Part shown: in pieces, positions 13 through 49,670 of the stretch
Layout: every line of letters begins with the position of its first letter
Numbering within the stretch: position 1 is the first letter of the stretch
Source of the DNA: a virus
Taxonomy: Duplodnaviria; Caudoviricetes
Reading direction: 5' to 3' (one strand)
DNA: 56,752 nucleotides
Virus record (IMG/VR): IMGVR_UViG_3300044699_000125
Location: 1 to 56,752 of that record
Made by a program: the position numbers and the translations under genes
Notes under the pieces: generated by a model
The model's input: only the letters and a program-made list of their open reading frames with translations
What the model was told of the DNA's origin: nothing
Database searches by the model: none

Positions 13-406
13 ATGAAGAACCAATTGTCACCGAGCATCGCTGTACTTGCTGCCATCGAAGCACTGCGTACCCGTCTGGATATGCTGGAGACGGAAGTGA
101 ATCGGGCCACTGCCGAGTATTGCCCCCTCGGCATCAGCAACGAGTTGCAACACTCTGTGGTCCCCGGCAAGGACGGTGTCCTCATCGTCGAAAACGTGGA
201 GTACCTACAGCGAGGCCACAGAGGACGACGATGGCACCAAGCGCACCGTCGGAGACTCCTGCATCGCTCTGGCCTACGGGCTGCTGTACGGCATCGCCGC
301 AGACACCCACGAGAGCCTCACCCACAAGCTGTACGACTTGGGTTACCTGCAAGACGACGTCGGCCCCACCGACGACGCCGAGTGGGAATTCGAGAACAAC
401 GTCTAG
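13..406 (+). CDS. Hypothetical early protein (one apparent frameshift near 205)
   Basis: AGGAG RBS and ATG at 13; continues in the frame of ORF 176..406 (acidic C-terminus), whose TAG is part of the next RBS. Confidence 0.6.
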
Positions 407-414
407 GAGCCGAC

Positions 415-555
415 ATGAACGAACAACAGGAAGCACAGCAGAAACGTGACGCATGGGTGTGGCGGGAGGCGCAGCGCAGCGCCAACGAGAACGCCATCGC
501 CATCGGCATCATCATCTTCACCTTGCTTAACTGTCTCTACTATTTCACTCGCTAG
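415..555 (+). CDS. Small membrane protein
   Basis: TAGGAGCC RBS, ATG 415, MNEQQEAQ...AIAIGIIIFTLLNCLYYFTR hydrophobic tail. Confidence 0.7.
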   Translation: MNEQQEAQQKRDAWVWREAQRSANENAIAIGIIIFTLLNCLYYFTR

Positions 556-563
556 GAGCCAAC

Positions 564-746
564 ATGCGCAAGAACGAGCATCCGAGTTGCGGCTGTGACC
601 AGTGCCGCCGTGGTATCCGCACCGATCACGGACACTTCGTGGTCAAGTACGTCAACCGCAAGCTGCGCCGTCTGTACCGAGAGGCGCTGCGCACCAAACC
701 TGACGAGGTGGTACAGATCATCGTCTCCACCCCGTACACGGACTAA
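564..746 (+). CDS. Small hypothetical protein with CxCxxC
   Basis: TAGGAGCC RBS; 60-aa ORF. Confidence 0.7.
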   Translation: MRKNEHPSCGCDQCRRGIRTDHGHFVVKYVNRKLRRLYREALRTKPDEVVQIIVSTPYTD

Positions 747-957
747 GCCATGGCCCACAGCGCAAGTACAACCGCACCATCGGCGGCTACGCTATCCACA
801 TAGAGGGCGTGGGCACCATCATCGTCAAGCGTGTCGCTGGGCATCACTGGGTAGCCCGAGCCAACCTGTCCGGGCTGGAGCGCAGACACGCCACCCGCGA
901 TAGCGCGGTGGATGCGCTGCTCCTGCATTATGCACACATCAGGAGTCACCACGCCCC

Positions 958-986
958 TTGACACACCTGTTGACACCATGTAGCAT
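958..986 (+). promoter_or_regulatory. Sigma-70 promoter
   Basis: TTGACA (958-963), 17 bp, TAGCAT (981-986), upstream of the RBS at 1001. Confidence 0.75.
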
Positions 987-1011
987 TCGCAACCTTTACT
1001 GGGAGCCACCT

Positions 1012-1473
1012 ATGAAGATGATAACGTGAACACCGGACGGAGACACTCTGTTCCGCATGGAAGCATACCTGCACCAAGATCGGGAATCAGCAGCCCTACT
1101 TCTCGATCACCGGCAGCGAGTACGAGAAGGGTCTGTGGGTGAGCGGCGGTTGTCTGCACGAAACCATCCTCACCATCTGGCCGGACCTCAAGCCCATCGT
1201 GACCTGCACCTCTCGAACATGGACGGCGTACCCATGCACGCTGCCGAGAACGGCTGGTACTGGGCCGGTGGCACCAAGTGGCAGCAAGCCGAGCCAGTCT
1301 TCCTCAAGAAGCACCTGCGCTGTGGCGAGGGCATGGTGCGAACCATGATCGGACTGGCAGCACGCGGCGACCGACTGACCTTCGACCGCATGGTCGAGAA
1401 CATGAAGCCTCTGTGGAAGGAGGAGGCCGAGCAGGTCATCACGCAATTCCAACTGACCATCAACGAAGACTAG
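1012..1473 (+). CDS. Hypothetical protein (frameshifted 5' half)
   Basis: GGGAGCC RBS and ATG at 1012; pieces GGCLHETILTIWPDLKPIV and LHLSNMDGVPMHAAENGWYW lie in adjacent frames. Confidence 0.6.
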
Positions 1474-1481
1474 GAGCCAAC

Positions 1482-1913
1482 ATGGAACATGCGGAAAAGG
1501 CCAAGCGCATCGGGCCGAGGACGTACCTCTACAGAGGCGTGAAGTTTGAGCGTGACATGGGCACCGCCCATGGCTACTGGGGTGCGTGGCGCACCACCGG
1601 CTACATCGGCAACGGCGAACTGCGAGCCGGGTCCATGAGCCGGATCATGCACGACATCGACCGCCACCTCGTCGTCCATGCCGAACAGATCGCCGCAGCC
1701 AACGAGCAAGCCGCCAGCTACGAGCGCCAGCGCCAAGCACACAGAGACGCCATCGACAGTGTGATAGGCAGGATGGTGCACGGGGTGTGGGTGGCCGGAA
1801 AGCTGGTGGCGGTGCTGCCCGACGCCGGGGCGGCGTGCCTCAAGGCATCACAGACCCCGAGCGGCGTGTATGGGGAAATCATGTGGGAAGCGATCAAGAG
1901 GGAGACGCTATGA
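1482..1913 (+). CDS. Hypothetical protein
   Basis: TAGGAGCC RBS; MEHAEKAKRIG... portion of ORF 1278..1913. Confidence 0.7.
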   Translation: MEHAEKAKRIGPRTYLYRGVKFERDMGTAHGYWGAWRTTGYIGNGELRAGSMSRIMHDIDRHLVVHAEQIAAANEQAASYERQRQAHRDAIDSVIGRMVHGVWVAGKLVAVLPDAGAACLKASQTPSGVYGEIMWEAIKRETL

Positions 1914-2300
1914 GCAACCTGTTCAACATGAAGAAGCCGTGCGGCAACTGCCCCTTCCTCAAGGAGGGGGCGATTGAGTTGGCGGCGGGGCGCATGGAGG
2001 GCATCGTGCGCAAACCTCGAAGAGAGCGACAAACAACCTCTTCTACTGCCACAAGACGGTCCACGGTCCCAACGGTGGCGAGTGGGACGAGGACGAGCGC
2101 GGCAGTCCCGTGTACGTCCCGAGCGGCAAGGAATCGGCGTGCTGCGGGGCGCTGGTGTATTCGCTGAAGACGGGTAACACCCCGGTGATGCTGCGCATTG
2201 CGCTGATGAGCGGGGCGCTGGAGTACGAGCCGCTGATGAGCAAGCGGAACAGATCATCGACGTCATCCCCATTTCACAGAGATCGGAGGAAACACAATGA
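1910..2300 (+). CDS. Cys-rich protein, DUF6283-like (frameshifted)
   Basis: PCGNCPF...FYCHKT...CCGA motifs spread over shifted frames; ATGA overlap with the previous stop. Confidence 0.55.
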
Positions 2301-2509
2301 GCAATGACCCGCAAAAGGATTTGGTCATCCTGCGTACCTCACTGGCTCGCGTTGCACAGAGCGCGAAGGTGAGCCTGTCCTGCGTCAAGCTGCCCGACGA
2401 CGCGGCCTACAGCCAGATCGTCAACGCAGCATGGAACGAGCAGCGCGGCTGGAACCGGTTGGCCGCAGCGGTCATCGACCGCATCGAAGAGTTGTCCGTA
2501 CGTTATTAA
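2297..2509 (+). CDS. Hypothetical protein
   Basis: GGAGG RBS, 70 aa. Confidence 0.65.
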   Translation: MSNDPQKDLVILRTSLARVAQSAKVSLSCVKLPDDAAYSQIVNAAWNEQRGWNRLAAAVIDRIEELSVRY

Positions 2510-2526
2510 TTCACAGGGAGCCACCC

Positions 2527-2955
2527 ATGAAAATCATCATCGCAATTCTGCTGTTCGTAACACCTCTGTTGGCGCACGCCGAGAAGCTGGTCAGCATCTT
2601 CTCATCCGCCGACGGCAACACTCGCTCATGCTGACGTCGAGTCGTTCTCCTACGAGAAGGATAACGGCGGGTTCTACATGGCCCGTATGTACGCCTACCA
2701 CAAGGGCGAGCGCACCAACCACTTCGTATCGGTCACCCCAACCGAGTGCGGCAAGGGAGCCGGAACGCTCATCATCACCACCGACAACAAGAAGGGGGCA
2801 GCGTCTACGCATGGTCGCTGTACGACGCGAAGGACGCCAAGAGCGGGCAGGGTTCCGATCATGTCGGCGTGGGTCTGTGCATGTTGGGGGGCGAGATCAC
2901 CCCCGAGCTTGAGATCAGGCCCGCCAGCAACAGCAAGCCGAAGCTGTCTCTGTAA
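2527..2955 (+). CDS. Signal-peptide protein (frameshifted)
   Basis: GGGAGCCACCC RBS; MKIIIAILLFVTPLLAHA signal peptide; continues through ORFs 2678.. and 2746..2955. Confidence 0.6.
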
Positions 2956-3005
2956 CCACAACCGCCGGGGCAGCAATGTCCCCGGCTACTCACCAAGGAG
3001 AATTG

Positions 3006-3173
3006 ATGTTCGACAATTTGGAAAAGATCGCCGTCGCCATGGGCTTCCCCGGCATCACGCTGGAGTTTCTGGTCAAGGTCAGCGCGTGCGTCGGCTCCTT
3101 CCCCCGCATCGCGGAGTTGAAGGACCTGCCCATCGACGTCGGGATCGCCGCCAAGCGCGAGTACATCGCCTAA
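3006..3173 (+). CDS. Small hypothetical protein
   Basis: AAGGAG RBS, ATG 3006. Confidence 0.6.
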   Translation: MFDNLEKIAVAMGFPGITLEFLVKVSACVGSFPRIAELKDLPIDVGIAAKREYIA

Positions 3174-3336
3174 TGGCGCAGGGGGCGGTCATGTTCGCCC
3201 CGGCGAAGACGCGGGAAAGGGCCGCTCAGATCGCACAGGAGGCCCGCCAAGCCGCGCTACGGGGCTAGGGGAGGGTATCCCCACCGTCCGCGTTCCCGTT
3301 CGTCGTAGTCCGGGGCGCGGGCGGCAGGGACCCCAC

Positions 3337-3379
3337 AAAAGGTGAGGCCCGATCAACCCACGGGGGGTAACCGGGCCTC
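3337..3379 (-). terminator. Intrinsic terminator-like hairpin
   Basis: GAGGCCCG...CGGGCCTC inverted repeat followed by ACCTTTT on the minus strand (short U-tract). Confidence 0.55.
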
Positions 3380-3412
3380 GTACTGCACCTCTAGGAGCCA
3401 CCCAGAGAGTGC
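3337..3412 (-). ncRNA. Candidate trans-acting antisense sRNA (anti-RBS)
   Basis: Own promoter (3417-3445), hairpin 3385-3412 with UGGCU loop, second hairpin 3344-3379 followed by UUUU; contains UGGGUGGCUCCUAG, complementary to the repeated RBS motif. Confidence 0.65.
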
Positions 3413-3416
3413 GGCA

Positions 3417-3445
3417 ATAGTAGCCAAGGATTGCAGGTCATGCAA
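3417..3445 (-). promoter_or_regulatory. Sigma-70 promoter for the candidate sRNA
   Basis: Minus strand TTGCAT (3445-3440), 17 bp, TACTAT (3422-3417); predicted +1 at 3410-3412. Confidence 0.65.
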
Positions 3446-3513
3446 GCAACGCCCGCAGGGCACCCGAGACGTTCATCGGGCTTCGCTCTGTGCTGGCTGT
3501 TTCCCCTTTGTAA

Positions 3514-3858
3514 TCACGGAGTCACCCCGAGCGTTATGTCCCCGGTCGCCCACAGTTGGGCGAACGTCACGCACACGAACTCGAACTGGGAGCCGTACTT
3601 CTCCTCCCACTCCGGCACGCTGGCGTGCAACTCGTCGTGGTGCGCCCTGCACAGAGGGATCGTCCAGATGTCCGGCGACTTGGTCCCGGCCCCTTTGTAG
3701 CCAGCCCCATGCGGATGGTGCGGGTCCGACGGCGCTGGCGCGTCACAGACGCAGCACGGCAACGCCCGCACCGCCGCCATGTACTTCTCCGAGCGCACAG
3801 AGGCATAGCCAAGCTTGAGCGCCTCGCGGAACGACAGCCCCGGCGGGATCGGCTTCAT
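3514..3858 (-). CDS. DUF968-like HNH/zinc-binding nuclease
   Basis: VRALPCCVC...DPHH...GTKSPD...IPLCRAHHDELH. Confidence 0.8.
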   Translation of the reverse strand: MKPIPPGLSFREALKLGYASVRSEKYMAAVRALPCCVCDAPAPSDPHHPHGAGYKGAGTKSPDIWTIPLCRAHHDELHASVPEWEEKYGSQFEFVCVTFAQLWATGDITLGVTP

Positions 3859-4109
3859 CGCGTCTCGGCCTCCCTCTGTATCAGCAGGTCCGCCATTTCC
3901 AGCGCCATGCTCATATGCTCCGGCGACAACTCGTCACCGGACGCCACCATCGCCGCCAGTTGCTCGCTGGCTATGCGCAGCCGCAGCGACGGGTACTCGG
4001 CCAGCACCCGATCCATCAGCCGCGCCACGCTCTCCTCGGTCACGCTCGTGATAGGCGGCGACTCCGGCCCTTGCTCGTCGATCTTCACCACCTTCGCCCC
4101 CCTCTTCAT
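3855..4109 (-). CDS. Hypothetical protein
   Basis: MKRGAKVV... coupled by ATGA overlaps at both ends. Confidence 0.6.
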   Translation of the reverse strand: MKRGAKVVKIDEQGPESPPITSVTEESVARLMDRVLAEYPSLRLRIASEQLAAMVASGDELSPEHMSMALEMADLLIQREAETR

Positions 4110-4747
4110 TTCACCATCCCCCGATCCAGCATGTCCCGCAGCATCGCCATCGCCTCCAACTCCTCCTTCGTGTGCCGCGACGTAACGCCGTCCCCTTGCC
4201 ACCAGTCCAAACAGGATTGGAGGAAGGGGGTGAAGAATTGGCCGCTGGTCGCCAGCAGCCTCTGTAGCGAGGCGGGCACCGCCCGGAACGCGCTCTTCTG
4301 GTCGTCCGGCTTGGTCAGCGCACAGACCTCGACGTCGGTGGAGCCGAAGGCTCTGCACGACACCGGTCGCACCGGGTACACAGAGCAGGTGTCGTTGTCG
4401 GCAAGGAACGGGCAGCGCAGGTTCAGCGCCCGGTACTGGTCGGCGTTCATGCCGAGCGTGAGGGCTACGGCTAACCGCAGCTTTTCAAGGATGCGGGCGC
4501 GCTCCTCGCGGGTGAAGTGGTCGCCGAAGCGGACGTAGTCCACGACGTCCACCACCTCGTGCGGCAGCGCATCCACCTGCAACTTGCAGCAGTGGGCGCA
4601 ACCGGCGCGGCACGCCAGCCCTTCCACAGAGTGCACCTGCGCGTCGATCTGGGCGTGGATCGGCGGCATGATGTCCTTCCACCCATGCCGCGAGTCCAGC
4701 AACTCGCCGCGCGTGTAGAAGCGAATCATCTGCTTGCTCTCGTTCAT
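4106..4747 (-). CDS. YkgJ-family cysteine-cluster protein (CxxGCxxCC)
   Basis: CRAGCAHCC...CPFL...CSVYPVRPVSCR. Confidence 0.85.
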   Translation of the reverse strand: MNESKQMIRFYTRGELLDSRHGWKDIMPPIHAQIDAQVHSVEGLACRAGCAHCCKLQVDALPHEVVDVVDYVRFGDHFTREERARILEKLRLAVALTLGMNADQYRALNLRCPFLADNDTCSVYPVRPVSCRAFGSTDVEVCALTKPDDQKSAFRAVPASLQRLLATSGQFFTPFLQSCLDWWQGDGVTSRHTKEELEAMAMLRDMLDRGMVK

Positions 4748-4944
4748 TGCGCGAACTTGTCGATCCGCATCGACAGCACAGAGGAGTACGCCTCCATGAT
4801 GCGCTCCTGCTGCCGCATCAGGTGCTGCTCCTCCAGCGGCAGCGTCGGGAACAACCCCCCTTGCAGGATGAACTCCTTCAGCTTCTGTAGTTTCTCGTCC
4901 AGCGCCGCCTTCTCCTCGACTACTCGTTCCTGATATGGCTCCAA
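4744..4944 (-). CDS. crAss001_48 / T4 Y16Q-like small helical protein
   Basis: YQERVVEEKAALDEKLQKLKEFI...F..L..EEQ.L...Q...M.AYS.VL..RI..F pattern. Confidence 0.75.
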   Translation of the reverse strand: MEPYQERVVEEKAALDEKLQKLKEFILQGGLFPTLPLEEQHLMRQQERIMEAYSSVLSMRIDKFAQ

Positions 4945-4947
4945 GCG

Positions 4948-5154
4948 TCACCCTCCGTCGTTGACAGCACGAACTTCGTACGCGCGCATGTAGTCGGCAT
5001 GGCACATATCGCACATCACCACCCCATCGACAACCTGTCCGTTGCCGATGGCCCCGCCTCGCGTTTCCCCGCACACCTCACAGAGGATTGCCTTGCGCAT
5101 GATGGCGATCACGAGGGCCTCGTCCATCGTGATTTCCTGCATCGTCGTCTTCAT
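4948..5154 (-). CDS. Small zinc-ribbon protein
   Basis: CEVC...CDMC. Confidence 0.65.
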   Translation of the reverse strand: MKTTMQEITMDEALVIAIMRKAILCEVCGETRGGAIGNGQVVDGVVMCDMCHADYMRAYEVRAVNDGG

Positions 5155-5163
5155 GTGTATCCC

Positions 5164-5523
5164 CTAAATCACAGCCCTCCGCGTATTCGCCGACTTGGTC
5201 TGCCAGCACGCGATCACTGTGTCTGCCAATTGCCATGTGTAGCGCAGCCTCTGTTCTTCCTGCGAGGCTGTCTTGAACGCTTCCAGAGCCAGCTTGTAGT
5301 CGTCGCTCGCTCTCGCGTCTCTCTCCTGCACATGCGCCGGTTCCTCCCGCCGCTTCGCCTTCTCTGTTGCCTCTACCACCTTGAGCCACTGCTCCATGTG
5401 CTGACGGTTGGCGATGGCTTGCGCCAGCGAGTTCACGTTGCCGCCCATCCACGCAATGGCGCGATCCACCGCCGCCTCGTCAACCGTCATTCCTGCCGAG
5501 ACACCCTCGAACGGTGCACTCAT
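5164..5523 (-). CDS. Coiled-coil phage protein (copy 1)
   Basis: MSAPFEG...QERDARASDDY...WQTKSANTR. Confidence 0.7.
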   Translation of the reverse strand: MSAPFEGVSAGMTVDEAAVDRAIAWMGGNVNSLAQAIANRQHMEQWLKVVEATEKAKRREEPAHVQERDARASDDYKLALEAFKTASQEEQRLRYTWQLADTVIACWQTKSANTRRAVI

Positions 5524-5723
5524 CGACCGATCCGCAGTACCGGGATACTGATACCGCCGAACAACAGACCGAGCAGCACCACCCCATCGACAACCTGTCC
5601 GTTGCCGATGGCCCCGCCTCGCGTTTCCCCGCACACCTCACAGAGGATTGCCTTGCGCATGATGGCGATCACGAGGGCCTCGTCCATCGTGATTTCCTGC
5701 ATCGTCGTCTTCATGTGTATCCC

Positions 5724-6083
5724 CTAAATCACAGCCCTCCGCGTATTCGCCGACTTGGTCTGCCAGCACGCGATCACTGTGTCTGCCAATTGCCATGTGT
5801 AGCGCAGCCTCTGTTCTTCCTGCGAGGCTGTCTTGAACGCTTCCAGAGCCAGCTTGTAGTCGTCGCTCGCTCTCGCGTCTCTCTCCTGCACATGCGCCGG
5901 TTCCTCCCGCCGCTTCGCCTTCTCTGTTGCCTCTACCACCTTGAGCCACTGCTCCATGTGCTGACGGTTGGCGATGGCTTGCGCCAGCGAGTTCACGTTG
6001 CCGCCCATCCACGCAATGGCGCGATCCACCGCCGCCTCGTCAACCGTCATTCCTGCCGAGACACCCTCGAACGGTGCACTCAT
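5724..6083 (-). CDS. Coiled-coil phage protein (copy 2)
   Basis: Same sequence as 5164-5523. Confidence 0.7.
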   Translation of the reverse strand: MSAPFEGVSAGMTVDEAAVDRAIAWMGGNVNSLAQAIANRQHMEQWLKVVEATEKAKRREEPAHVQERDARASDDYKLALEAFKTASQEEQRLRYTWQLADTVIACWQTKSANTRRAVI

Positions 6084-9363: not shown

Positions 9364-10140
9364 ATGGCTGGCGATCCGCCTGTTGAACCCGTTGTTTCGC
9401 TCGACGTTCCCCACACCCCGCTGGTCGAGTGGCACGACCATCCCCCCGGCATCCGGGTGGACGATGGCACCCCGCAGTTCTCCACCTCCCCCACCTTCTC
9501 CAAGCTGGCCTCTGCACTGGCCCGTGTGCAGAAGCTGCTGAAGCAGCCGTCGAAGGGGGCCGACAACCCGTTCTTCAAGAGCAAGTATGCGGACCTGCAC
9601 GACGTGTGGAGCGCAGTGCGGGGGCACCTCTCGGACGAGGGGATTGCCGTCGTCCAGTCGCCGTCGTTCTCGACCGCCGAGATCAAGGGCAAGGTGGTCG
9701 GGATTATCACCATCAGCACCACGATAATCCACGGTGATAGCGGGGAGTGGATGACCAACGTGCTGCGCGGCACCTCCGAGAGCATCGGCCCGCAAGCCAT
9801 CGGTAGCGCGATCAGCTACTTCCGCCGCTACAGCATCCAGCCGCTGCTGATGCTGACCCCGGACGACGGCAGCGACGACGACGCCGAGAAGGCCGAGGGC
9901 CGCGCTCCGCCCGCCGACGACAAGCCGACCCCCGAGGAGATCGACAAGACCACCAAGGACATCAAGGCGGCGGACAGCAACGTCAAGCTGAAGGCCGTGT
10001 ACTTGGGCATCCCCGACGCCCACAAGAAGTTCTTCACCAAGCTGGTGAATGCTCGCAAGGCGGCGCTGGAGAAGGCCGAGGCACAGAGCGAACCCGAGTC
10101 CAGCCAGACCCCGGCGAGCGATGGCACAGGTCACGAGTGA
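9364..10140 (+). CDS. erf: ERF-family ssDNA-annealing protein
   Basis: LASALARVQ...NPFFKSKYADL...GSAISYFRRYSI...DDDAE. Confidence 0.92.
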   Translation: MAGDPPVEPVVSLDVPHTPLVEWHDHPPGIRVDDGTPQFSTSPTFSKLASALARVQKLLKQPSKGADNPFFKSKYADLHDVWSAVRGHLSDEGIAVVQSPSFSTAEIKGKVVGIITISTTIIHGDSGEWMTNVLRGTSESIGPQAIGSAISYFRRYSIQPLLMLTPDDGSDDDAEKAEGRAPPADDKPTPEEIDKTTKDIKAADSNVKLKAVYLGIPDAHKKFFTKLVNARKAALEKAEAQSEPESSQTPASDGTGHE

Positions 10141-10741
10141 GCAGCGCACAGAGGCATGGCATGAGGCCCGCAGGGGCCGCATGACCTCGTCTCGGATGGC
10201 CGAAGCCATCGGCTACATCGGCTCCCGTCGCAGGTTGTGGCGAGAGTTGACGGGCCGGGAGAGCCACGACTTTTTCGCGGACGGCAACCCACGCATTCTG
10301 CACGGCACCAGCTTCGAGCCAATGGCGCTGGCTCTGTACGGGGAGGTGATGAACTACCACGTCGCCAAGGTCGGCTATATGTCGCATCCGATGATCGACT
10401 GGATCGGCGGCTCGCCGGATGGGCTGGTGCTGGCAGTGGGTGGCGTCGAGGTGAAGTGTCCGGCAGCGTTCTACGAGGAGATTCCCGACTACTACATGCC
10501 GCAGATGCAATCGCTGATGCAGATCACCGGTGCACGCTGGTGGGACTTCGTGGTGTGGACGCCCGAGGAGGCGTCGATCACCCGAGTCCACAAGTCGCAA
10601 CCGTACTGGGATCAGCTATACGAGTTGCTCTGCGAATTCTGGGCCTATGTGGAGGCCGACGTTGAGCCTCCTGCATTCAAGCGTGGCACCAAGCCGCGCA
10701 TCACAGCAGCGGTGGAAACCCGCTTGCTTCACAAGGAGTAG
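10121..10741 (+). CDS. YqaJ / lambda-exonuclease family protein
   Basis: QRTEAWHEARRGRMTSS...HGTSFE...GSPDGLV..EVKCP..Y.PQMQ. Confidence 0.92.
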   Translation: MAQVTSEQRTEAWHEARRGRMTSSRMAEAIGYIGSRRRLWRELTGRESHDFFADGNPRILHGTSFEPMALALYGEVMNYHVAKVGYMSHPMIDWIGGSPDGLVLAVGGVEVKCPAAFYEEIPDYYMPQMQSLMQITGARWWDFVVWTPEEASITRVHKSQPYWDQLYELLCEFWAYVEADVEPPAFKRGTKPRITAAVETRLLHKE

Positions 10742-12507: not shown

Positions 12508-12536
12508 TTTACAAGCAATCGACATGGAGGTACAGT
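12508..12536 (+). promoter_or_regulatory. Sigma-70 promoter
   Basis: TTTACA, 17 bp, TACAGT. Confidence 0.6.
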
Positions 12537-12577
12537 CGATGTGTCAACACCCGTTGTCTAACCATAGGAGCCACCCA

Positions 12578-13408
12578 ATGGACATCGAAGTGTCCGTCGA
12601 GAAGATCAGCCCCGCCAAGGCTGAGAAGATGCTCAACACCAATTGCAGCAACCGCACCCTGCGTGAGGGCATCGTCGAGAAGTACGCCGACGACATGCGC
12701 AAGGGCCAGTGGACGAAGTGCATCGCCCCGATTGCCTTCTACGAGGATGGGGACGTTGCTGACGGGCAGCACCGTCTGTGGGCCATCATCGAATCCGGCG
12801 AAACCCACGAATTCATGGTGGTGCGTGGCCTCGACCGCGAGTCGGGACTCAACATCGACGTCGGTCTGCCCCGGTCGCTGGTGGACAACGCTCGCATCAG
12901 CGGGGTCAACGAGCATCTGTCGAACCGGATCATCGCTGTTGCCCGTGTGGTCGCCACCGGCCAGCGCGGCAGCCGCTCCCCCAAGGGTGTGAGCAACGCG
13001 GTCAAGCTGGCCTATGTGGACAAGTACAACGAGTGCGTTCGCTGGGCCATCGAGAACGCTCCGGCGGGGCGCACCTTCTCCCACTCGCTGGTGCTGGGTG
13101 CCATGGCCCGTGCCTACATGGTCGAGGAGGATAAGGCGCGTCTGGCCCGCTTTGGTGAGGTGCTGTCCAAGGGCTTCATGGCCGACGAGAGGGACTCCGC
13201 CGCCATCGCCATGCGCAACTACCTGATGGTGGCCGCGAAGACCGGGTTCAGCCATCAGGACGTGTGGCAGGACACCTTCCTCAAGACCCAGAACGCGATC
13301 AAGCACTTCATGCGTAGCAAGCGACTAACCCAGATCAAGTCTGTGCGGGAAGAGGCGTACCCGTTGCCGACGGCCAAGGTGACCAAACTGAAGAAGAAGG
13401 CGGCGTGA
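12578..13408 (+). CDS. ParB/Srx-like (DGQHR) domain protein
   Basis: ISPAKAEKML..N..NR.L....V.KYADDM..G.W...DGQHRL.AI. Confidence 0.8.
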   Translation: MDIEVSVEKISPAKAEKMLNTNCSNRTLREGIVEKYADDMRKGQWTKCIAPIAFYEDGDVADGQHRLWAIIESGETHEFMVVRGLDRESGLNIDVGLPRSLVDNARISGVNEHLSNRIIAVARVVATGQRGSRSPKGVSNAVKLAYVDKYNECVRWAIENAPAGRTFSHSLVLGAMARAYMVEEDKARLARFGEVLSKGFMADERDSAAIAMRNYLMVAAKTGFSHQDVWQDTFLKTQNAIKHFMRSKRLTQIKSVREEAYPLPTAKVTKLKKKAA

Positions 13409-13953
13409 TGCCAACTCCCGGCTACATCTACGTCCTCTCCAATCCGGCCATGTCCTCGATGGTCAAGATCGGCAAGACCACGAACGCCCCGCATGTGCGG
13501 GCCAGAGAGTTGTCGATCAGCACCGGGGTCCCTTTGCCGTTCAAGGTCGAGGGGTACTTCGTCAGCAATGACATTGCACAGGATGAGAATTTCATTCACT
13601 TCGGCATGCAAGAACTGCGTGTCAACGGGAAGCGCGAGTTTTTCTACGGTAGCGTGGACAAGGTGCGTGAGTTTGTTAAACACGCAATGCGTGAGGTGAC
13701 GTGGTTGGACGGAAGCGTGGAGCAGCATGTGCCAACGCCGCCCGCACCACCTCGCCGCCCAGTTGTGCTGCCGCCTCCGCCGCATCTGGAGGGCGAGGCG
13801 CGGAAAGAGTGGCTTGCAAGAGGAGTGGTACTGCACCCGCTACCGCCGATTGCACCAAAGCCGAATTTCAGCGTGACGGATGAGGTGCTGCGAACGCTGC
13901 ACCCGGTGCGCCAGACCTACGACCGCGACTACCGTCACCGCCACGACAACTGA
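13405..13953 (+). CDS. GIY-YIG (T5orf172-like) protein
   Basis: GYIYVLSNPAM..MVKIGKT...R..ELS..TGVP.PF...E..IH...REFF. Confidence 0.88.
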   Translation: MMPTPGYIYVLSNPAMSSMVKIGKTTNAPHVRARELSISTGVPLPFKVEGYFVSNDIAQDENFIHFGMQELRVNGKREFFYGSVDKVREFVKHAMREVTWLDGSVEQHVPTPPAPPRRPVVLPPPPHLEGEARKEWLARGVVLHPLPPIAPKPNFSVTDEVLRTLHPVRQTYDRDYRHRHDN

Positions 13954-15287: not shown

Positions 15288-15370
15288 CGTCGATCCACTT
15301 TACAGTCGCCGCCGGAAATTATGGGGGAATCACATAAAATCATGTGATTGCGAAGTGGTCCCGGAATTGC
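15288..15370 (+). promoter_or_regulatory. Sigma-54 promoter with upstream activator box and IHF-like site
   Basis: CGT-N11-ACA (CGTCGATCCACTTTACA, 15288-15304); AATCATGTGATTG (15338-15350); TGG-N10-GC (TGGTCCCGGAATTGC, 15356-15370). Confidence 0.7.
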
Positions 15371-15409
15371 TTACCTGCTGGGGCAACACCAACCAACAAG
15401 GGGAGTCCC

Positions 15410-16129
15410 ATGAAGAAACTGTTCCTCGCCGCCATGCTGGCCCTGTTCTCGGCCCCGGCGGTGGCTACGCTGCAACTGGCCGCTGACATCAACGGCACCA
15501 TCTTCACCTGCGTCGATCAGGCGGCGTGCGACACCAACCTCGCGCCGAACCAACTGGCGATTGCCGACCAGACCATCAACGGCGTGCGGATCGTCGGCTC
15601 CTCGCAGATCGCATTCGCGGGCGGGCTGAACTTCCTCAACACGTCGTCGTTCCAGATCGTCAACCTGACGCAAGCGGCGCGCACGGTCATCCTCGCCATC
15701 AGCGGAATCGACTTCGAGGGACCGGCCAATGGCTTCGATGCCAGCGGCAGCGGCACCTTCCAGAACGCCGTCGGATCGACCATCAACCTGTCGTTCTACG
15801 CTGACCCGGCGAACCAGCAAGGCGCGGACACGCCGAACGACCTGCCGGGGCTGCAACTGGCGACGTTCGCGGATGTGGCGACGACGCTGGCGGATGCGTT
15901 CGCGTTCAACAGCAATGGCCCGTTCACCTCCCCCGGCGCGTTCAGCATGTCGCTGGGCACCGTCGGCACGTTTGCGGCGTGGAACGGGATCGTGGGTCAG
16001 GAGCCGACGCTCGTCGGTCGCAGCCAGACGCTGCTGATCCCGCAAGCGATCCCCGAACCGGGCACGCTGGCGCTGCTGGGCCTCGGGCTGTTCGGCCTCG
16101 GCTTCATGCGGCTGCGTCGGGCCAAGTAA
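15410..16129 (+). CDS. PEP-CTERM sorting-domain protein 1 (phage-encoded)
   Basis: Signal peptide MKKLFLAAMLALFSAPAVA; C-terminal IPEPGTLALLGLGLFGLGFMRLRRAK. Confidence 0.95.
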   Translation: MKKLFLAAMLALFSAPAVATLQLAADINGTIFTCVDQAACDTNLAPNQLAIADQTINGVRIVGSSQIAFAGGLNFLNTSSFQIVNLTQAARTVILAISGIDFEGPANGFDASGSGTFQNAVGSTINLSFYADPANQQGADTPNDLPGLQLATFADVATTLADAFAFNSNGPFTSPGAFSMSLGTVGTFAAWNGIVGQEPTLVGRSQTLLIPQAIPEPGTLALLGLGLFGLGFMRLRRAK

Positions 16130-37779: not shown

Positions 37780-37791
37780 GGGTGAATCCTT

Positions 37792-41186: not shown

Positions 41187-44008
<2,822 letters not shown>

Positions 44009-44012
<4 letters not shown>

Positions 44013-44431
44013 GGAGTCGGTTCATCAACCGTCACGCCCAGATTCACGATCACCTGTCCCTCGACCAGCCGATCCTCTGTGCCGTCGGGGTTGTAGCACT
44101 TCAGGTCCCACCAGCCGTCCTTCACCGCGAGGTCGGTGAGTTCGTCGGGAACGATGATGATGACGTAGCCCTGATCGTCGCCGGTGATGCCGCCGTCGGT
44201 ATCCTCGGAGGTCACCGTGAACACCACCTCGGAGGTGGTCTTCTTCGACTTGCGCATCTGCACCCGGAACTGGCAGCCGGTGAAGTCGCGCGGGGTGCCG
44301 ATCTGCATGTTGCCGTCGGTGTCGAGGATCGGGTCACCGGCGACGTCCACCAACAGAGCGCCGAACTGAAATTTCGGGAAGCGGTAGGTCGCCCCCTGCT
44401 CCACCTTGATGTCGTACACCGCCGCAGTCAT
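44009..44431 (-). CDS. Virion structural protein (fibre-attachment type)
   Basis: [11 protein letters not shown]...DFTGC.FR.Q.R...WDL......RLVEG.V. Confidence 0.75.
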
Positions 44432-45072
44432 TACAGCCTCCGCATCCGCACAGAGAGATTGGCGCGGGTGTGGCCCTTGTTGGCCTTCACCATCGCCACG
44501 TTGATCCCGGCAATGAACGCGCCCTGATTGAAGGCCGCCATCTGTGGATTGCTGAAGGTCTTGCCGGGGACGATCTGGAGACTGGACTTGGCTCCCGCAG
44601 CGATGACCTCGACCCAATCCTCGAACAGCGCATCGTCTACAGAGGTGGCGTGGCGCGTGGGCTTCAGGGCCACCCGCAGCGTCACCGCATTGGCCTCGTC
44701 GGCACCGGGCGCGCGGCACAGAGTAATGGTCCGCTCGTCCTTCTGGATGTAGCCGATGGGCGTCGATCCGCCGGTGGAGTGCGCCGGGTTGTAGGTGCCC
44801 GGATCGTCCATGTCGTCGGGTGCGTACGGGACCAGCACCCGGTTGCGATACCACGCCTTCATCACCTTGCACACGAGGTGATGCGACGGCGGTGACAGAT
44901 CGTAGTCGCCGACATTGGCCCGCACCGAGATCGGGTCATGCTCCCTCTGTAGAACCAGCGACCGCTCGCAGAACTCGATGGCTGCCGACGAGATCGCACC
45001 CAGCGCCTGCACGTCGGCGCAGCCGGGTACATCCGGCAGCACATAGGGCAGGAACTCGTCGAGCGGGGTCAT
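44431..45072 (-). CDS. Head-tail adaptor-like protein
   Basis: FLPYVLPDVPGC...AAIEFCERS...VALKPTR. Confidence 0.75.
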   Translation of the reverse strand: MTPLDEFLPYVLPDVPGCADVQALGAISSAAIEFCERSLVLQREHDPISVRANVGDYDLSPPSHHLVCKVMKAWYRNRVLVPYAPDDMDDPGTYNPAHSTGGSTPIGYIQKDERTITLCRAPGADEANAVTLRVALKPTRHATSVDDALFEDWVEVIAAGAKSSLQIVPGKTFSNPQMAAFNQGAFIAGINVAMVKANKGHTRANLSVRMRRL

Positions 45073-45749
45073 ACCCCCTCCATGGTGATCGCGGCCACGT
45101 TGGGCATTGCGCCCTTGCTGGAGTAGTCAGGCGAGAACGCGGCGTCCTTGCGCGTCTTGAGGCCCAACAGCGCCATGAAGGTCTGGAGGTAGGCCGAGGC
45201 CAGTTGCGCGTTCTGGGCGAACTGCGCCTCCTTGCTGTAGCAACGAAACAGCACATAATTTACCAGCGGGTCGGTGTAGATGTCGGTGACCGCCAGAATG
45301 TCGGTGAGCGCCGTGACAGGCGTCGGCAGCTTCGAGTACAGAATCTCGACCTTGGCAGTGCCCTTCTTCGGGTCCGGCACCGGCGGCGAGACGTAGTAGT
45401 GGTACGGGTCCCGGTTGTCGTAGATGTAGTTGCGCACCACCACAGACGGCGTCTGGATGTGCCAGTTGGGGTCGGAGGTGTCGAGGACCTCTCGATCCAC
45501 ATAGCGGATGGCGCGACCGCCGATGTTGCGGATCACGTCCAACAGACGCAGCCCGTTGATCGGCAGGTCCTGCTTGGTGCCGGGGACCAGCGTGACCTGC
45601 TCGTTCACAGACGAGGCGTCCGGGCGCACGAGGACGACGGCGCGCTGGCCGTCGGTGAGCCACTGGAACATCTCGTCGTCCAGCCAGCGGATGCCTTCCT
45701 CATCCTGCAACAGGAGGCGTGCGCGGGTGATGACATCACTAGCAACCAT
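45069..45749 (-). CDS. Head-tail adaptor (DUF6682-like)
   Basis: VITRARLLLQD..IRW.D.E...WL.DGQ...RPDA...YVLFRCYSKE. Confidence 0.8.
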   Translation of the reverse strand: MVASDVITRARLLLQDEEGIRWLDDEMFQWLTDGQRAVVLVRPDASSVNEQVTLVPGTKQDLPINGLRLLDVIRNIGGRAIRYVDREVLDTSDPNWHIQTPSVVVRNYIYDNRDPYHYYVSPPVPDPKKGTAKVEILYSKLPTPVTALTDILAVTDIYTDPLVNYVLFRCYSKEAQFAQNAQLASAYLQTFMALLGLKTRKDAAFSPDYSSKGAMPNVAAITMEGV

Positions 45750-45766
45750 GGTCAGCCCCTAGTCGT

Positions 45767-45797
45767 GGAAGAACCCACGGGATGGTGGTCCCGTGGG
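45767..45797 (-). terminator. Terminator downstream of the capsid gene
   Basis: CCCACGGGA-N6-TCCCGTGGG perfect 9-bp stem, then TTCTT on the minus strand. Confidence 0.65.
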
Positions 45798-45819
45798 CAC
45801 CTCTGTGCTACAGGCCGCC

Positions 45820-46848
45820 TTACGACTGTGCGACGTATGCGATGCCCAGCGCCTCGGTCTTGGTCAAGCCGTAACCGAACACGTTCAGGCCGCGCACGAT
45901 GTTGCCGAACGTCTGCTGCGAGCGCAGCGTCTCCACGTTGGTGATCTGGGACGCGAACGAAATACCGTCCCTGCACCCGAACAGGCACTCGCTCGCAGCC
46001 ACCAAGGCCCCATCGACAATCGCCTCGTAGTTGTTCGACAGGTAGATCGTGAACCGGTCCACCGTCCCGATCTTCCCGTTGCGCAGCGGCGACTTGTCGT
46101 CACCGGTCAGGTACACCGCCTTCAGATCGGACGTCTTGAGCATGAAGCCCATCCACGCCGGGAGGACGATCCAACGCCCCGACTCGGGCACGTTCTGCTC
46201 GTCCAGCACGAGGCCAGCACGCAGGATGATGTCCAGCGGGTTGCACGACGTCGCCGACAGCGAGCCGGGGGCCTTGGTGTTGTCCGGGACCAGCGGAGCC
46301 GTCGTCTTGCCAAGGTTGATCTTGCCGGTGACGACACCGGCGAGGTCGCCCTTATTCTTGGCGGTGACCACCGTTGACCAGCGCGCCGTCGGGCTGCCCG
46401 GAGGATGATTCAAGACCACGGCGTCGATCTTGATCTTCATCTGCTCCGCTGCGTCGTTGGTGAAGTTGTCCATCAACTTCAGGTCCGACTGCACAGCGTT
46501 GACGTCGTCGAGGACCACCGCGAAATACTTGCCCTTGTCGATCAGCAGTTCCAGCGAGTCCGTGTTCGGCTGTTCGAGGGTGAGCGCGAGGCCCTTCTTG
46601 TAGTCGTTGATCGTGATGTCGGGCGTCTTGCGGATCACCACCTTGTCGCCGTGACCCTTGATTTCACCTTCCCAGTCGTTGTTGGTGATTTCCGACAGGA
46701 CGGTGGACTTGTAGAACTTGACTTGCAGCTTGCCGCTCCAGACCTCGGGAATGAAGCGGGCACCTGCAACACCTGTGTCGGACGAATAGTCCGGCGACAC
46801 ACCGGAATAACCGGGCGGAGTTCCCGGAGCGATAGGAAAGACAGCCAT
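45820..46848 (-). CDS. Major capsid protein
   Basis: FIPEVWSGKL...ITNNDWEGEIK..GDKV.I...LDEQNVPESGRW...FGNIVRGLNVFG. Confidence 0.93.
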   Translation of the reverse strand: MAVFPIAPGTPPGYSGVSPDYSSDTGVAGARFIPEVWSGKLQVKFYKSTVLSEITNNDWEGEIKGHGDKVVIRKTPDITINDYKKGLALTLEQPNTDSLELLIDKGKYFAVVLDDVNAVQSDLKLMDNFTNDAAEQMKIKIDAVVLNHPPGSPTARWSTVVTAKNKGDLAGVVTGKINLGKTTAPLVPDNTKAPGSLSATSCNPLDIILRAGLVLDEQNVPESGRWIVLPAWMGFMLKTSDLKAVYLTGDDKSPLRNGKIGTVDRFTIYLSNNYEAIVDGALVAASECLFGCRDGISFASQITNVETLRSQQTFGNIVRGLNVFGYGLTKTEALGIAYVAQS

Positions 46849-46892
46849 GATTGCACCTTTAGCCGGTGACGCTCACGGCAACAGAGGGCACC

Positions 46893-47801
46893 CTAGCGGA
46901 TGCGACCCTCCACCGTCGCGGCGTTGATTTCAGCTTCCGTGACAATCGCCTCTGCGTCTGTGAACCTCCCCGCTCGCCAGTCCGAGTAGAACTGCGCCAC
47001 CTGCGCACGGGTGTAGAACGGCTTCCCGGCGGAGGGCACGCTACGCGATGACGAATCAGGGACGATCTGAGATTCCAGAGCATTGCGCGAATTTGTCGCC
47101 TTGGACTGTTTGGCTTCCTTCCACCCGTTGAAGAACCGCGCAACCCTCTGTGCATCCCGAGCGTCCTTGGCCCGATCCAACAGAGCCTGCCGGGTCACCC
47201 CAGCAAACTCATCCACTCCATCCAGCCACGTCAGGAAGTCTTGATCGACGTTGATCTGTGCCCATTCCGGGCACAGAGAAGTCACCACGTCGATGAAGTT
47301 CTGCCACTGGATTTCTCCAGCGGACTTCTTCAGTGAATCGAGTTCGTCTTTGGTGGCCGTCAGTTCACGCTGCATTGGGGCTTGGGCTTGCGCCATCACC
47401 TCGCGTGCTGCGCGTCGTGCCATGTCCACCAGAGGCTCGCCGAATTCCTGAATCTCCTCGGGCTTGATGAGCGGCTCAATCGGAGCCTTGCTCTGTGCGT
47501 CTTCGAGTTGCTTGGCGAGCGTGCCAACCTTGGCGGTCAGGTCGCTCACCGCTTCCTTCAGGGCGCGGTTATCGGCAGCCATTCTCGGGACTTCGGCGTT
47601 GTACTTCCCGGCGAGTGTCTTGTACTTCGCTTCCCATGTTTCCTGAGTCGGAGCCGGGGCTTCCGGCGCGGGGGCCGGGGACGCTGGCTGCTGCTCTGTG
47701 GGAGGCGTTACCTGCGCAGGCTCGCCCTGCTTTCCGTACGCCTTCTCGTACAACTCATCTGCGAGTTGTCCTGCCCGTTCGACTGCCTGTGGAAGAGCCA
47801 T
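46893..47801 (-). CDS. Capsid scaffolding protein
   Basis: Directly upstream of the capsid gene; KYKTLAGKYNAEVPR, coiled coil, W.QIN.D.DFL.WL, EGRIR terminus. Confidence 0.8.
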   Translation of the reverse strand: MALPQAVERAGQLADELYEKAYGKQGEPAQVTPPTEQQPASPAPAPEAPAPTQETWEAKYKTLAGKYNAEVPRMAADNRALKEAVSDLTAKVGTLAKQLEDAQSKAPIEPLIKPEEIQEFGEPLVDMARRAAREVMAQAQAPMQRELTATKDELDSLKKSAGEIQWQNFIDVVTSLCPEWAQINVDQDFLTWLDGVDEFAGVTRQALLDRAKDARDAQRVARFFNGWKEAKQSKATNSRNALESQIVPDSSSRSVPSAGKPFYTRAQVAQFYSDWRAGRFTDAEAIVTEAEINAATVEGRIR

Positions 47802-47901
47802 TCGTGTGCAAGCCTCAGAAACGTCACCGCGAGCGTGTGTGAAACGTCTTCGCTTCGACTACCCGTAGGTGTTTGCGTCTGCCGGAGTCTGTCCGGCGCA
47901 G

Positions 47902-48138
47902 CTACTCTGTACGTTTGCGATGCATGATGCCCATCGCCTCATCACTGGTTTCGATGATCGACGTCAACGTCTGGACCGAACCCTGCAACCAACGCGCTGC
48001 GACCTCGTCCTTGGCAAGGGACAGCGCGTTGTGGTCCGCATCTCTGCTTGCGACCATCCACTCCTTCACCACCTGCCAGTCCGGGTCGCCTTGCAGCGAC
48101 GCCAGTGCCGACAGGACTCTGTTCTCTGCGCGAATCAA
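47902..48138 (-). CDS. Small head-module protein
   Basis: 78 aa, RWLQG, between portal and scaffold. Confidence 0.65.
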   Translation of the reverse strand: MIRAENRVLSALASLQGDPDWQVVKEWMVASRDADHNALSLAKDEVAARWLQGSVQTLTSIIETSDEAMGIMHRKRTE

Positions 48139-48935
48139 GCCTTCTTGACCTTCTTCACCGTGCCGCCGTCGGCCTTGCCGCCGCCCAGTCCCGGACGACC
48201 TCCGGGACTGCCGGGGCCAGACGCACCGCTGAACGCCTTCTTCAGCGATTTCCAGCCTCTGCCCATCGGGGTCCGGTCCCAGCCGCTCTCGCCTTCCTCG
48301 TCGTCCCCCGCCTTGTCGGCGGCGGGCTTCGGGCTGTCGGGCCTGCCGGAGGGCCGGTCGCTGAACGCATTGGCCGCGCCGGTGACCGCCGCGCCCACCT
48401 TCTTGGCGATGGCCTTGGCGGTGCTGGTGTCGCCGCTGGCCGCCGCTGCCCCGGCAGCCTGACCCGCTGCCTGCATCTTGTTCTTCGGCTTGGGCAGGGC
48501 GGGCGTGTAACCACGATCCTCGGTGGCGGCGGTGCCCATGACCGGAGCCGCTGCGGCAGCGGCGCGCTGACCGGCCAGCATGTTCTGCTCCGGCTCGCGG
48601 TCGCCACCCATGCCCGCAGCAGCCACCGGTGCCGCTGGTACGTCCTGCATCCGCTGCCTCTGACCGGCGTCCGAGTACGCAGCTTCCTGCGCCCTCTGTG
48701 CCGCCTGCTTGGCCTCGTAGTCCTCGCGCGCCGCGAAGGCGGTGTTGCCCGCGCTGTCGTCCTTGAACGGATCGGTGCGGGTGATCTCCACCTCATCACC
48801 GTCGGCGTACTTCTTGACCCGGCCTCCGTTCGCCATCTTCTTCGGCGTGGAGTGGTAGCTGTGCACCGACTTGATGTTGCCGCCGAGGTCGTGCTTGCCC
48901 TTCTTGGCGCAGTCTCTGTAAGTTCCGGCACCCAT
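48135..48935 (-). CDS. Low-complexity protein with xxGGxV motifs
   Basis: KMANGGRV, KYADGDEV, KADGGTV. Confidence 0.7.
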   Translation of the reverse strand: MGAGTYRDCAKKGKHDLGGNIKSVHSYHSTPKKMANGGRVKKYADGDEVEITRTDPFKDDSAGNTAFAAREDYEAKQAAQRAQEAAYSDAGQRQRMQDVPAAPVAAAGMGGDREPEQNMLAGQRAAAAAAPVMGTAATEDRGYTPALPKPKNKMQAAGQAAGAAAASGDTSTAKAIAKKVGAAVTGAANAFSDRPSGRPDSPKPAADKAGDDEEGESGWDRTPMGRGWKSLKKAFSGASGPGSPGGRPGLGGGKADGGTVKKVKKA

Positions 48936-48937
48936 GT

Positions 48938-49393
48938 TCAGCGTCCTTTCACCATGCCACCGTTCTTCAGGTGGAGTGGCTCTGTTTTCGGCATCGGCAG
49001 GTTCTTGGCGGTGGCCTTCGGGTTGCTGGCCTTGTTCTGCACACCCTTCTTGATCTTGCCGCCGTCAGCCTTCTTCACCGGCTCCTCGTCCTTCACCTTC
49101 TTGACTTGACCGGGATCGGGTTCACCGCGCTCGACCGCCGCCATCCGCTCCTCGCGCCGCTTGATGGCGTCGGCGAAGCCGCCGGTGATGATCGGGCTAC
49201 CCTTGGGCTTGGCCTTCTCGCCCATGCCCTTGACCTCGCCACCGTCGGCGTACTTCTTCACCGCTGTGGCCTTGCCGAAGGGACCCTTGGCAACAGCGGC
49301 CTTGCCGCCCTTGCCCTTGTCCTCCTTGGCATCCTTGTCCTTGCCCTTCTGCAACCACGGTGGCAGGGACTTCTGCTTCCCGGCTGGTTTCAT
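48938..49393 (-). CDS. Lys-rich protein with xxGGxV motifs
   Basis: MKPAGKQK..., KYADGGEV, KADGGKI, KNGGMV. Confidence 0.7.
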   Translation of the reverse strand: MKPAGKQKSLPPWLQKGKDKDAKEDKGKGGKAAVAKGPFGKATAVKKYADGGEVKGMGEKAKPKGSPIITGGFADAIKRREERMAAVERGEPDPGQVKKVKDEEPVKKADGGKIKKGVQNKASNPKATAKNLPMPKTEPLHLKNGGMVKGR

Positions 49394-49670
49394 GCTGGCA
49401 TCTCCTGTGGTGGCGCAACGCCTTGAGGCGGTTGGGGATTTGCCCCCTGCGGTGGGGCGAGCATAGGCTGCTGCGCGCCGGGTGACAAGGGACCGGCGGA
49501 GCCGGGTTGCGGCGGTACACCGGGCGGCGGTGCGACCGGTGGGCCAGCAGCGTCCCCGCCGGTGGCCTGCATCGGGGCGGGTTTCGGCTCCGGCACCAGC
49601 TTGTCGGTGTCCATCTGTAAGGTTCGAGCGATGTCCTTCAACAGATAGCGGCGACCGTCCTCGGTGATCG
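49390..49670 (-). pseudogene. 3' fragment of the portal gene
   Basis: ITEDGRRYLLKDIARTLQMDTDKLVP plus a Pro/Gln tail, at the expected portal position; the 5' part is missing. Confidence 0.6.

Follow-up and report, generated by a model that had tools for sequence, protein, structure and literature searches.

ACAGA/TCTGT, a short non-palindromic word strongly over-represented in the DNA of a phage lineage

Short words that recur throughout a genome are known from several systems. The DNA uptake sequences of Neisseriaceae and Pasteurellaceae are dispersed, density-selected words of 9–12 bp that mark 'own' DNA in cellular genomes and are read by the competence machinery. The gp4 primase of phage T7 uses the site 5'-GTC-3' with flanking preferences, and we know of no report of a tenfold enrichment of these primase sites. 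In cyanobacteria, HIP1 and the alternate highly iterated palindromes (HIPs) are iterated in genes, vary between lineages and are of unknown function, and a model in which repair drives their spread has been put forward (PMC4390886). In lambdoid phages that have a recombinase but no RecBCD inhibitor, the recombination hotspot Chi is over-represented with a median observed/expected ratio of 2.5 (PMC3784561). Here we describe a further word, ACAGA and its complement TCTGT, in the virus record IMGVR_UViG_3300044699_000125 (Duplodnaviria; Caudoviricetes), a phage from soil. The window, meaning the whole stretch analysed, is this single record of 56,752 bases; most of it is phage DNA in which the word is in large excess, and the remainder is a bacterium-like flank.

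ACAGA/TCTGT resembles each of these systems in part. Like uptake sequences it is dispersed and selected for density, but it is a phage word of 5–7 bp and is not enriched in the bacterial flank. With the T7 gp4 sites it shares a short core, variable flanks and presence on both strands, but the Prim-Pol and Toprim_2 families are absent from all five of the word-rich genomes scanned for protein families. It meets the HIP feature of iteration in genes beyond codon and protein constraint (z 31–35 in shuffles), but HIPs are palindromes with cognate orphan methyltransferases (PMC4390886), whereas ACAGA/TCTGT is non-palindromic and no methyltransferase was found in those five records. As with Chi in lambdoid phages, a short asymmetric word is enriched in phages that have a recombinase and no Gam, a pattern read in both cases as protection and recombination of linear DNA. 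The difference is that Chi is the host's word and has one orientation, while the orientation of ACAGA is random and neither the flank nor phages of the same hosts show an excess; the ACAGA excess is also much larger than that of Chi, with a ratio of about 3.6 to a Markov model and of about 10 to relatives. The word belongs among the selected genomic words, together with Chi, uptake sequences and HIPs, although its membership of any one of these families fails at a tested feature or is at most tentative. A search of the full-text literature, which leaves most subscription journals outside, returned no description of ACAGA or of a comparable non-palindromic iterated phage word.

An excess in the phage DNA alone

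The phage part (positions 1–49,650) contains 288 ACAGA/TCTGT sites, 135 of them ACAGA on the plus strand and 153 TCTGT, or about one site on either strand per ~170 bp. Markov models of orders 1–3 predict 81–125, and under the maximal-order model ACAGA is the most over-represented of all 5-mers (288 vs 125.2, z 19.4). A first-pass annotation of the sequence had noticed the excess, with the proviso that it might disappear under codon or Markov null models. It persists. Synonymous-codon shuffles, which preserve every protein and the codon usage of each gene, gave a mean of 94.7 sites (n = 300, standard deviation 6.2, maximum 110; z 31.3), and whole-codon shuffles a mean of 79.8 (n = 300, standard deviation 5.9; z 35.0). 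For the six-mer ACAGAG/CTCTGT there are 154 sites where shuffling predicts 39.6 ± 3.8. The hand counts made at the time were reproduced exactly, both in positions 1–5000 (16 ACAGA and 12 TCTGT, 28 in all; 10 ACAGAG and 8 CTCTGT, 18 in all) and in the non-phage segment after 49,650 (4 ACAGA and 3 TCTGT, 7 in all; six-mers 0 and 1). As had also been noted, the word reaches the junction with this segment, the final sites lying at ~49,614 and ~49,641. Among the 16 NCAGN words ACAGA is the sole outlier, at 58.0 per 10 kb in the phage part, 9.9 in the flank and 5.9 in a pool of 286 kb from 14 GC-rich relatives, a 9.8-fold difference between phage part and pool, and the one-mismatch neighbours of ACAGA are all modestly depleted. 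The other doubt raised at first pass, a basecalling artefact, is excluded by the same excess in six other public records from different metagenomes. The excess is thus genuine and confined to the phage DNA. Neither composition nor codon usage nor protein sequence accounts for it, which calls for a benefit or drive that acts on the DNA itself. To that extent the benefit proposed at first pass stands; the readers named with it were not established.

The placement of the sites follows neither reading frame nor gene boundary. With crude gene calls from a codon model, which cover 90% of the phage part, 251 sites fall inside genes in all six phases (ACAGA 34, 24 and 77; TCTGT 33, 12 and 71), and a further 36 lie in 5,178 nt of intergenic sequence. 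The codons that spell the word are ACA, AGA, TCT, GTA, TTG and NNA/NNT, and the spelling with rare codons described earlier was found again (ACA-GAG 26 times, xAC-AGA 24, TCT-GTG 19, TCT-GTA 10). The word fills 14–51% of the positions at which the amino acids permit it. Site spacing in the window is Poisson-like, with a coefficient of variation of 1.02, and in all six word-rich genomes compared the spacing is likewise Poisson-like and the order of orientations random (runs-test z -1.4 to +1.8). Nothing speaks for a bipartite or paired motif: no distance between sites is favoured up to 60 bp, and inverted pairs were not seen to be preferred. The information in the motif is confined to positions -2 to +5, and the only flank signals are those at -1, where 19 of 287 sites have G, and at +5 (G in 154, A in 16), and the favoured 7-mer in the window is CACAGAG (74 copies vs 6.7 expected). 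On a single strand, the gaps between cores reach 2.9 kb and those between 7-mers 9 kb. At the level of the DNA, then, the word has a core of 5 bp, which lineage-specific flanks, here C-ACAGA-G, extend to 7 bp.

Relatives, site turnover and the question of phage or host

Relatives were found through the capsid and the polyvalent protein, and 12 of their records were taken for whole-genome comparison. Such a comparison had been suggested at first pass, and it separates two classes (Table 1): six relatives are enriched at 39–63 sites per 10 kb, and six others carry 5–19. The z scores from synonymous shuffles are 31.5 (G001), 32.7 (G002), 21.7 (G005), 12.2 (G006) and 8.4 (G007) in word-rich relatives, and range from -1.6 to 4.0 in the six word-poor ones. 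The word occupies 27–36% of amino-acid-compatible positions in word-rich genomes and 4–13% in other relatives. Its flanks differ by lineage: C-ACAGA-G in the window, T-ACAGA-G in G001, Y-ACAGA-Y in G004, A-ACAGA-Y in G005 and R-ACAGA-T in G006 and G007. A quick capsid tree places the word-rich records in a few neighbouring groups and not in one clade. No comparable iterated word of their own was found in the word-poor relatives G008–G013. As separate observations, two of these have an excess of the XhoI site CTCGAG, G009 (104 vs 33) and G013 (84 vs 25.5), and G013 additionally has TATATATA runs.

Individual sites turn over. In orthologous genes at ~60% amino-acid identity, 11 of 50 sites are shared in place with locus L134 and 12 of 47 with L135, so that density has been kept and individual sites have not. 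At 31 of the 39 sites found in the window and missing from L134, the residues of L134 cannot encode the word; among mutually compatible positions, shared sites are mildly above independence (11 vs 5.6 for L134; 12 vs 8.2 for L135). Some genes are poor in sites. The major capsid genes of six word-rich genomes together hold 6 sites vs 29.2 expected, and two accessory genes of the window that close relatives lack, for a PEP-CTERM protein and a T5orf172 protein, lie in site-free stretches, neither of which, taken singly, is far beyond what a Poisson process allows.

Two PEP-CTERM surface-protein genes lie at 15,344–16,873, and one of them is shared with the contigs L169, L170 and L171. Its homologues on these three viral contigs are 92%, 82% and 57% identical by tblastn over 197–198 residues (90, 79 and 58% in a protein scan). 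The contigs otherwise share almost nothing with the window, have a similar GC and an overlapping palindrome avoidance, and carry ACAGA at 5.5, 8.2 and 5.2 per 10 kb. The shared gene is thus an accessory one that these phages have in common, and their hosts are probably related. Taken together, these word-poor contigs, the unenriched flank and the 49–65% range of GC among word-rich phages indicate a trait of the phage lineage and not a general adaptation to one host. The evidence points to ACAGA excess as a phage-lineage property, and a host enzyme used by this lineage alone is also compatible with it. As regards the host, a metagenome scan with the LacI-like protein of the flank gave a single match, 49% identical and on a 2.6-kb contig, and a host-genome search gave no match at 1e-40 in 301 genomes from each of the phyla of a Planctomycetales and a Lentisphaeria metagenome-assembled genome.

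Table 1. Features of the window, and ACAGA/TCTGT density in the window and its relatives (GC, fraction of G and C)
Feature or record	Coordinates	Strand	Sites per 10 kb	GC	Remarks
Word-rich phage DNA	1..49689	both			288 sites, 154 six-mers, CACAGAG 74
DUF968 HNH-type endonuclease	3514..3858	-			in window, G001, G002, G005, G006 and word-poor G009
Erf-family single-strand annealing protein	9364..10140	+			partner of the exonuclease; 71-73% identical in G001, G002, G003 (loci L134-L136)
YqaJ / lambda-exonuclease-like gene	10049..10741	+			6/7 word-rich records (no match in G004); 1/6 word-poor (G009)
DGQHR (ParB/DndB-like) protein	12524..13408	+			GC-rich clade only: window, G001, G002, G003, G004
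T5orf172 gene	13405..13953	+			within 682-bp site-free stretch 13,340-14,022; no match in close relatives
PEP-CTERM accessory (moron) gene	15344..16129	+			within longest site-free stretch, 14,849-16,189
Polyvalent-protein open reading frames	16,846-24,258; 24,021-26,609; 26,053-27,615	-			counterparts of one G001 gene
Major capsid gene	45820..46848	-			0 sites vs 6.0 expected at genome density
Portal gene remnant	49561..49689	-			residues 622-665 of the 723-aa portal of G001, 80% identity
Junction	49690..49740				phage similarity stops at 49,689; restriction-type sites about 8 per kb from 49,740
Word-poor bacterium-like flank	49741..56752				LacI-family regulator, N-methyl/DUF1559 proteins
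Window			58.0	0.634	word-rich
G001			51.7	0.638	word-rich; complete, 61,541 bp, 123-bp terminal repeat, 318 sites
G002			63.3	0.648	word-rich
G004			38.6	0.636	word-rich; 28%-complete
G005			47.0	0.587	word-rich; complete, temperate, 293 sites
G006			54.4	0.491	word-rich; complete, 286 sites
G007			45.7	0.515	word-rich
G008-G013			4.9-19.2	0.52-0.65	word-poor

Candidate readers and competing explanations

Genes that follow the trait were sought with tblastn and phmmer over 13 records, the window and its 12 relatives. Only two DNA-acting genes, those for the YqaJ exonuclease and for the DUF968 HNH endonuclease, occur in both word-rich clades; the latter is in all three complete word-rich genomes, and both are also in G009. 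The first-pass annotation had named a ParB-like protein with the motif DGQHR, which is indeed present in the protein listed in Table 1, as a possible reader. This did not hold up: the gene is in none of ten further relatives' records, the word-rich G005, G006, G007 and G014 included, and the protein used as query in a single-protein scan of viral contigs found no relatives. A gene for a CobS/MoxR-like AAA_5 ATPase, next to VWA or DUF7192 genes, is present in all four word-rich records that cover the region (G001, G002, G005 and G006) and in none of the six word-poor ones. The predicted partners of this ATPase are unlike between the two clades, and as a reader it was rejected, with weak Atlas leads to CobS N-terminal domains (0.76–0.78) and no DNA-binding match. 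Contigs of other phages with CobS-like ATPases (L174–L251, GC 0.48–0.60) have a feature of their own: most carry the palindrome Y-GTTTAAAC-R about once per 0.7–1.3 kb, in one example as TTTAAA (44 vs 2.8 expected), and a sub-group has TGTAAAC instead. About two thirds of these palindrome sites are in open reading frames, many near their ends. Y-GTTTAAAC-R on these contigs is an iterated word separate from ACAGA.

The phage part also avoids restriction-type sites to a degree that bears on what the word could be. In positions 1–49,739, CCWGG, GTCGAC, GCCGGC, CCCGGG, GGCGCC, CAGCTG, AGCGCT, CTGCAG, GAGCTC, CTCGAG and GGATCC do not occur at all, and CGATCG, CGGCCG, AAGCTT and GCATGC are at 0.2 per 10 kb. 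Of 15 palindromes tested, 14 are at or below 0.2 per 10 kb in the phage part, while 13 are present in the flank, where their density reaches 30 per 10 kb. The flank also has about ten times the density of the asymmetric CTCAG found in the phage part. Relatives avoid overlapping yet different sets. Near-total avoidance of 6-bp palindromes indicates that restriction is escaped by loss of sites and not through a protective modification, and it argues against a broadly protective modification. A link between ACAGA and CCWGG avoidance was considered and rejected, as many CCWGG-free relatives have no excess and no common precursor word appears where relatives miss a window site.

By analogy with Chi, we tentatively prefer a reading in which ACAGA is a dispersed 'self' or recombination signal tied to the exonuclease–HNH module. 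On replicating or concatemeric phage DNA, a nuclease that processes DNA ends would run into the word after a few hundred bases at most, from whatever end or break it set out and on either strand, and would there change from degradation to recombinational repair. The nuclease might be a host enzyme of the RecBCD/AddAB type, or the lambda-Exo-like YqaJ of the phage acting with the DUF968 HNH and annealing proteins. With a site every ~170 bp on one strand or the other, any concatemer end would be served, and a small benefit per site would explain why the word gives way in the capsid gene to selection on codons and is missing from newly acquired genes. The link to recombination is drawn from the distribution of the YqaJ gene, in six of seven word-rich records, and of the HNH gene, in the three complete ones. 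Neither lambda-Gam nor Mu-Gam families were found in the five word-rich records, which places these phages in the class with a recombinase and without a known RecBCD inhibitor.

Several observations weigh against this Chi-like reading. No DNA-acting gene among the 13 records tracks the enrichment perfectly, the search identified no reader protein, and in G009, despite its exonuclease and HNH genes, the excess is only weak (104 vs 79.3, z 4.0). E. coli over-represents its own Chi ~2.3-fold (PMC3784561), but the flank, one short stretch of ~7.1 kb and the sole host-like DNA in which ACAGA was counted, has its 7 sites where a first-order Markov model predicts 7.9, and thus no enrichment of the host type. 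The same source describes lambdoid Chi as clustered in the region from the replication origin to the packaging site, whereas ACAGA is spread evenly along the phage part and over its strands (135 vs 153), and no flip of orientation was seen along G001 with its terminal repeat, so that the orientation bias of Chi is missing. Among lambdoid phages, Chi is most abundant in those without recombinases, a trend opposite to the one seen here. The core density is also similar across GC 0.49–0.65, which is awkward for a host enzyme. Of the protection against RecBCD/AddAB that had been proposed at first pass, what stands is that it is possible and that the five word-rich records lack Gam as such a role would have it; enrichment in the host and a bias of orientation were not found.

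Other explanations have to be weighed against this one. Somewhat improbably, the sites could be dispersed double-stranded targets of a phage-encoded DNA-binding protein, for instance one with a part in coating, condensing, packaging or ejecting the genome, for which orientation would be irrelevant. Random orientation and Poisson-like spacing in six of six word-rich genomes are what such a protein would leave; the enrichment goes with the phage lineage, the preferred flanks change from one lineage to another as the specificity of a protein would, and the distribution of the CobS/MoxR-like ATPase (4/4 vs 0/6) shows that lineage-limited accessory genes exist. However, no DNA-binding gene tracks the trait in the 13 records, the ATPase resembles viral CobS without any sign of a DNA-binding domain and its correlation amounts to two independent clades only, and in other phages with related ATPases none of 58 loci of at least 8 kb exceeds an ACAGA ratio of 1.6. 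It is unlikely, though several features would fit, that the word is selfish or neutral and spreads by a drive like that proposed for HIPs, in which a sequence-specific nuclease or biased repair or recombination converts near-cognates to ACAGA and purifying selection restrains it. The modest depletion of all one-mismatch neighbours, the random placement, the many sites that alter an amino acid (31 of the 39 seen in the window and not in L134), the depletion in capsid genes (6 vs 29.2), the absence from new genes and the co-occurrence of HNH and exonuclease genes with the trait all agree with a drive, and a repair model for HIP1 has been published (PMC4390886). That model needs a methyltransferase, and none of the four methyltransferase families was found in the five records; moreover no single neighbour stands out as the precursor, and 39–63 sites per 10 kb across GC 49–65% looks like a selected set-point.

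A role as primase initiation site for discontinuous synthesis on either strand is decidedly unlikely. The word occurs on both strands, and its favoured 7-mer about once per 1.2–1.4 kb per strand, close to the size of Okazaki fragments; TCTGT also includes CTG, the trinucleotide at which E. coli DnaG starts. However, besides the lack of Prim-Pol and Toprim_2, a DnaG-type zinc ribbon is present in one of five word-rich records and below the family cut-off, the two word-rich clades have different replication modules, and spacing is uneven, with the per-strand gaps given above. The zinc ribbon belongs to a 166-residue open reading frame of G005 (39,951–40,076; 23.1 bits against a cut-off of 24.9), which lies between genes for a DUF1376 protein and a DnaB-like helicase. 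We consider it very unlikely that ACAGA is the target of a phage or host modification enzyme that marks the genome as self, as had also been suggested at first pass. Short asymmetric targets are typical of type III, type IIG and BREX-type systems, and the flanks vary by lineage, but phages usually lose rather than gain the targets of host systems, and restriction appears to be escaped by avoidance (14 of 15 palindromes). The enzyme itself did not come to light: the DNA-methyltransferase families PF01555, PF02086, PF00145 and PF02384 are in none of the five word-rich records and, by Pfam, among none of the window's open reading frames, and no modification enzyme shared across word-rich records emerged from Pfam scans. 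Finally, it is hardly credible that avoidance of restriction sites, codon or amino-acid usage or an artefact of assembly lies behind the excess. Avoidance of CCWGG and palindromes does distort neighbouring words (CCTGC 247 vs 140), but codon-preserving shuffles do not give the excess, CCWGG-free relatives such as G010, L048, L078 and L169 lack it, ACAGA stands alone among the NCAGN words, and seven records from different metagenomes agree.

Structure of the record and meaning of the word

The phage part is that of an SU10-like podophage, with genes for capsid, adaptor, internal virion proteins and a polyvalent protein of at least ~2,470 amino acids, and an early region that encodes an SF2 helicase, Erf, the YqaJ exonuclease, the DUF968 HNH endonuclease and the DGQHR protein. 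Compared with the complete relative G001 the window has ~10 kb less, most of the portal gene included. What remains of the portal is a match of 44 residues to the C-terminal part of the relative's protein, and going by this sequence similarity the remnant marks where the phage DNA ends. CCAGG, CCTGG and four 6-bp palindromes are found once in positions 1–49,739 and then about 8 times per kb from 49,740 onwards. No integrase, transfer RNA (tRNA) gene or repeat was seen at the junction, nor was any tRNA gene found in the window as a whole, and the phage end within the portal gene may reflect either an insertion that was truncated or a chimeric assembly. The contigs of a soil sequencing run contain 0.43 of the sampled words, and over positions 42,000–56,752 they match the phage part in exact low-depth pieces; the same contigs do not cover 49,872–51,347, a gap that proves nothing about the junction.

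Some other features of the record and its relatives are worth noting. In G001 the polyvalent protein is encoded by one gene of 3,212 amino acids, and its counterparts in the window are three overlapping open reading frames in different frames, which suggests frameshifts, sequencing errors or a split gene. A tandem duplication (5,004–5,303 and 5,564–5,863, period 560 bp, with a reported 98% identity over 300 nt) yields two copies of a 108-residue open reading frame that is single in G001. Tad2-like domains, known as Thoeris anti-defence, are found in G001 (L137:17,905–18,315) and G005 (L140:17,040–17,954). An integrase and a CI-type repressor in G005 show that part of this phage family is temperate. 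A megablast search with positions 24,000–44,000 against annotated GenBank phage records gave no match.

About a third of the positions that the proteins permit have been rewritten to ACAGA, at a cost in rare codons, which means that either the reader matters strongly to the phage or the word drives itself efficiently. The trait spans hosts of very different GC, and six word-rich and six word-poor relatives that share structural genes form a clean contrast set, with which the reader should be findable. It is conceivable, though doubtful, that the lineage carries a portable system of genome identity: an encoded reader of a short asymmetric word, a phage-owned counterpart of Chi independent of the host's word, would sit in the YqaJ/DUF968 module or in the CobS-like AAA+/VWA cassette, its flank specificity would drift, silent positions would be rewritten to ~300 copies, and other phages would have other words. 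If the word is such a phage-owned self or recombination signal, it would add a new layer to the conflict between phage and host, and it would provide a sequence signature by which metagenomic contigs may be assigned to the lineage and recently acquired genes spotted.

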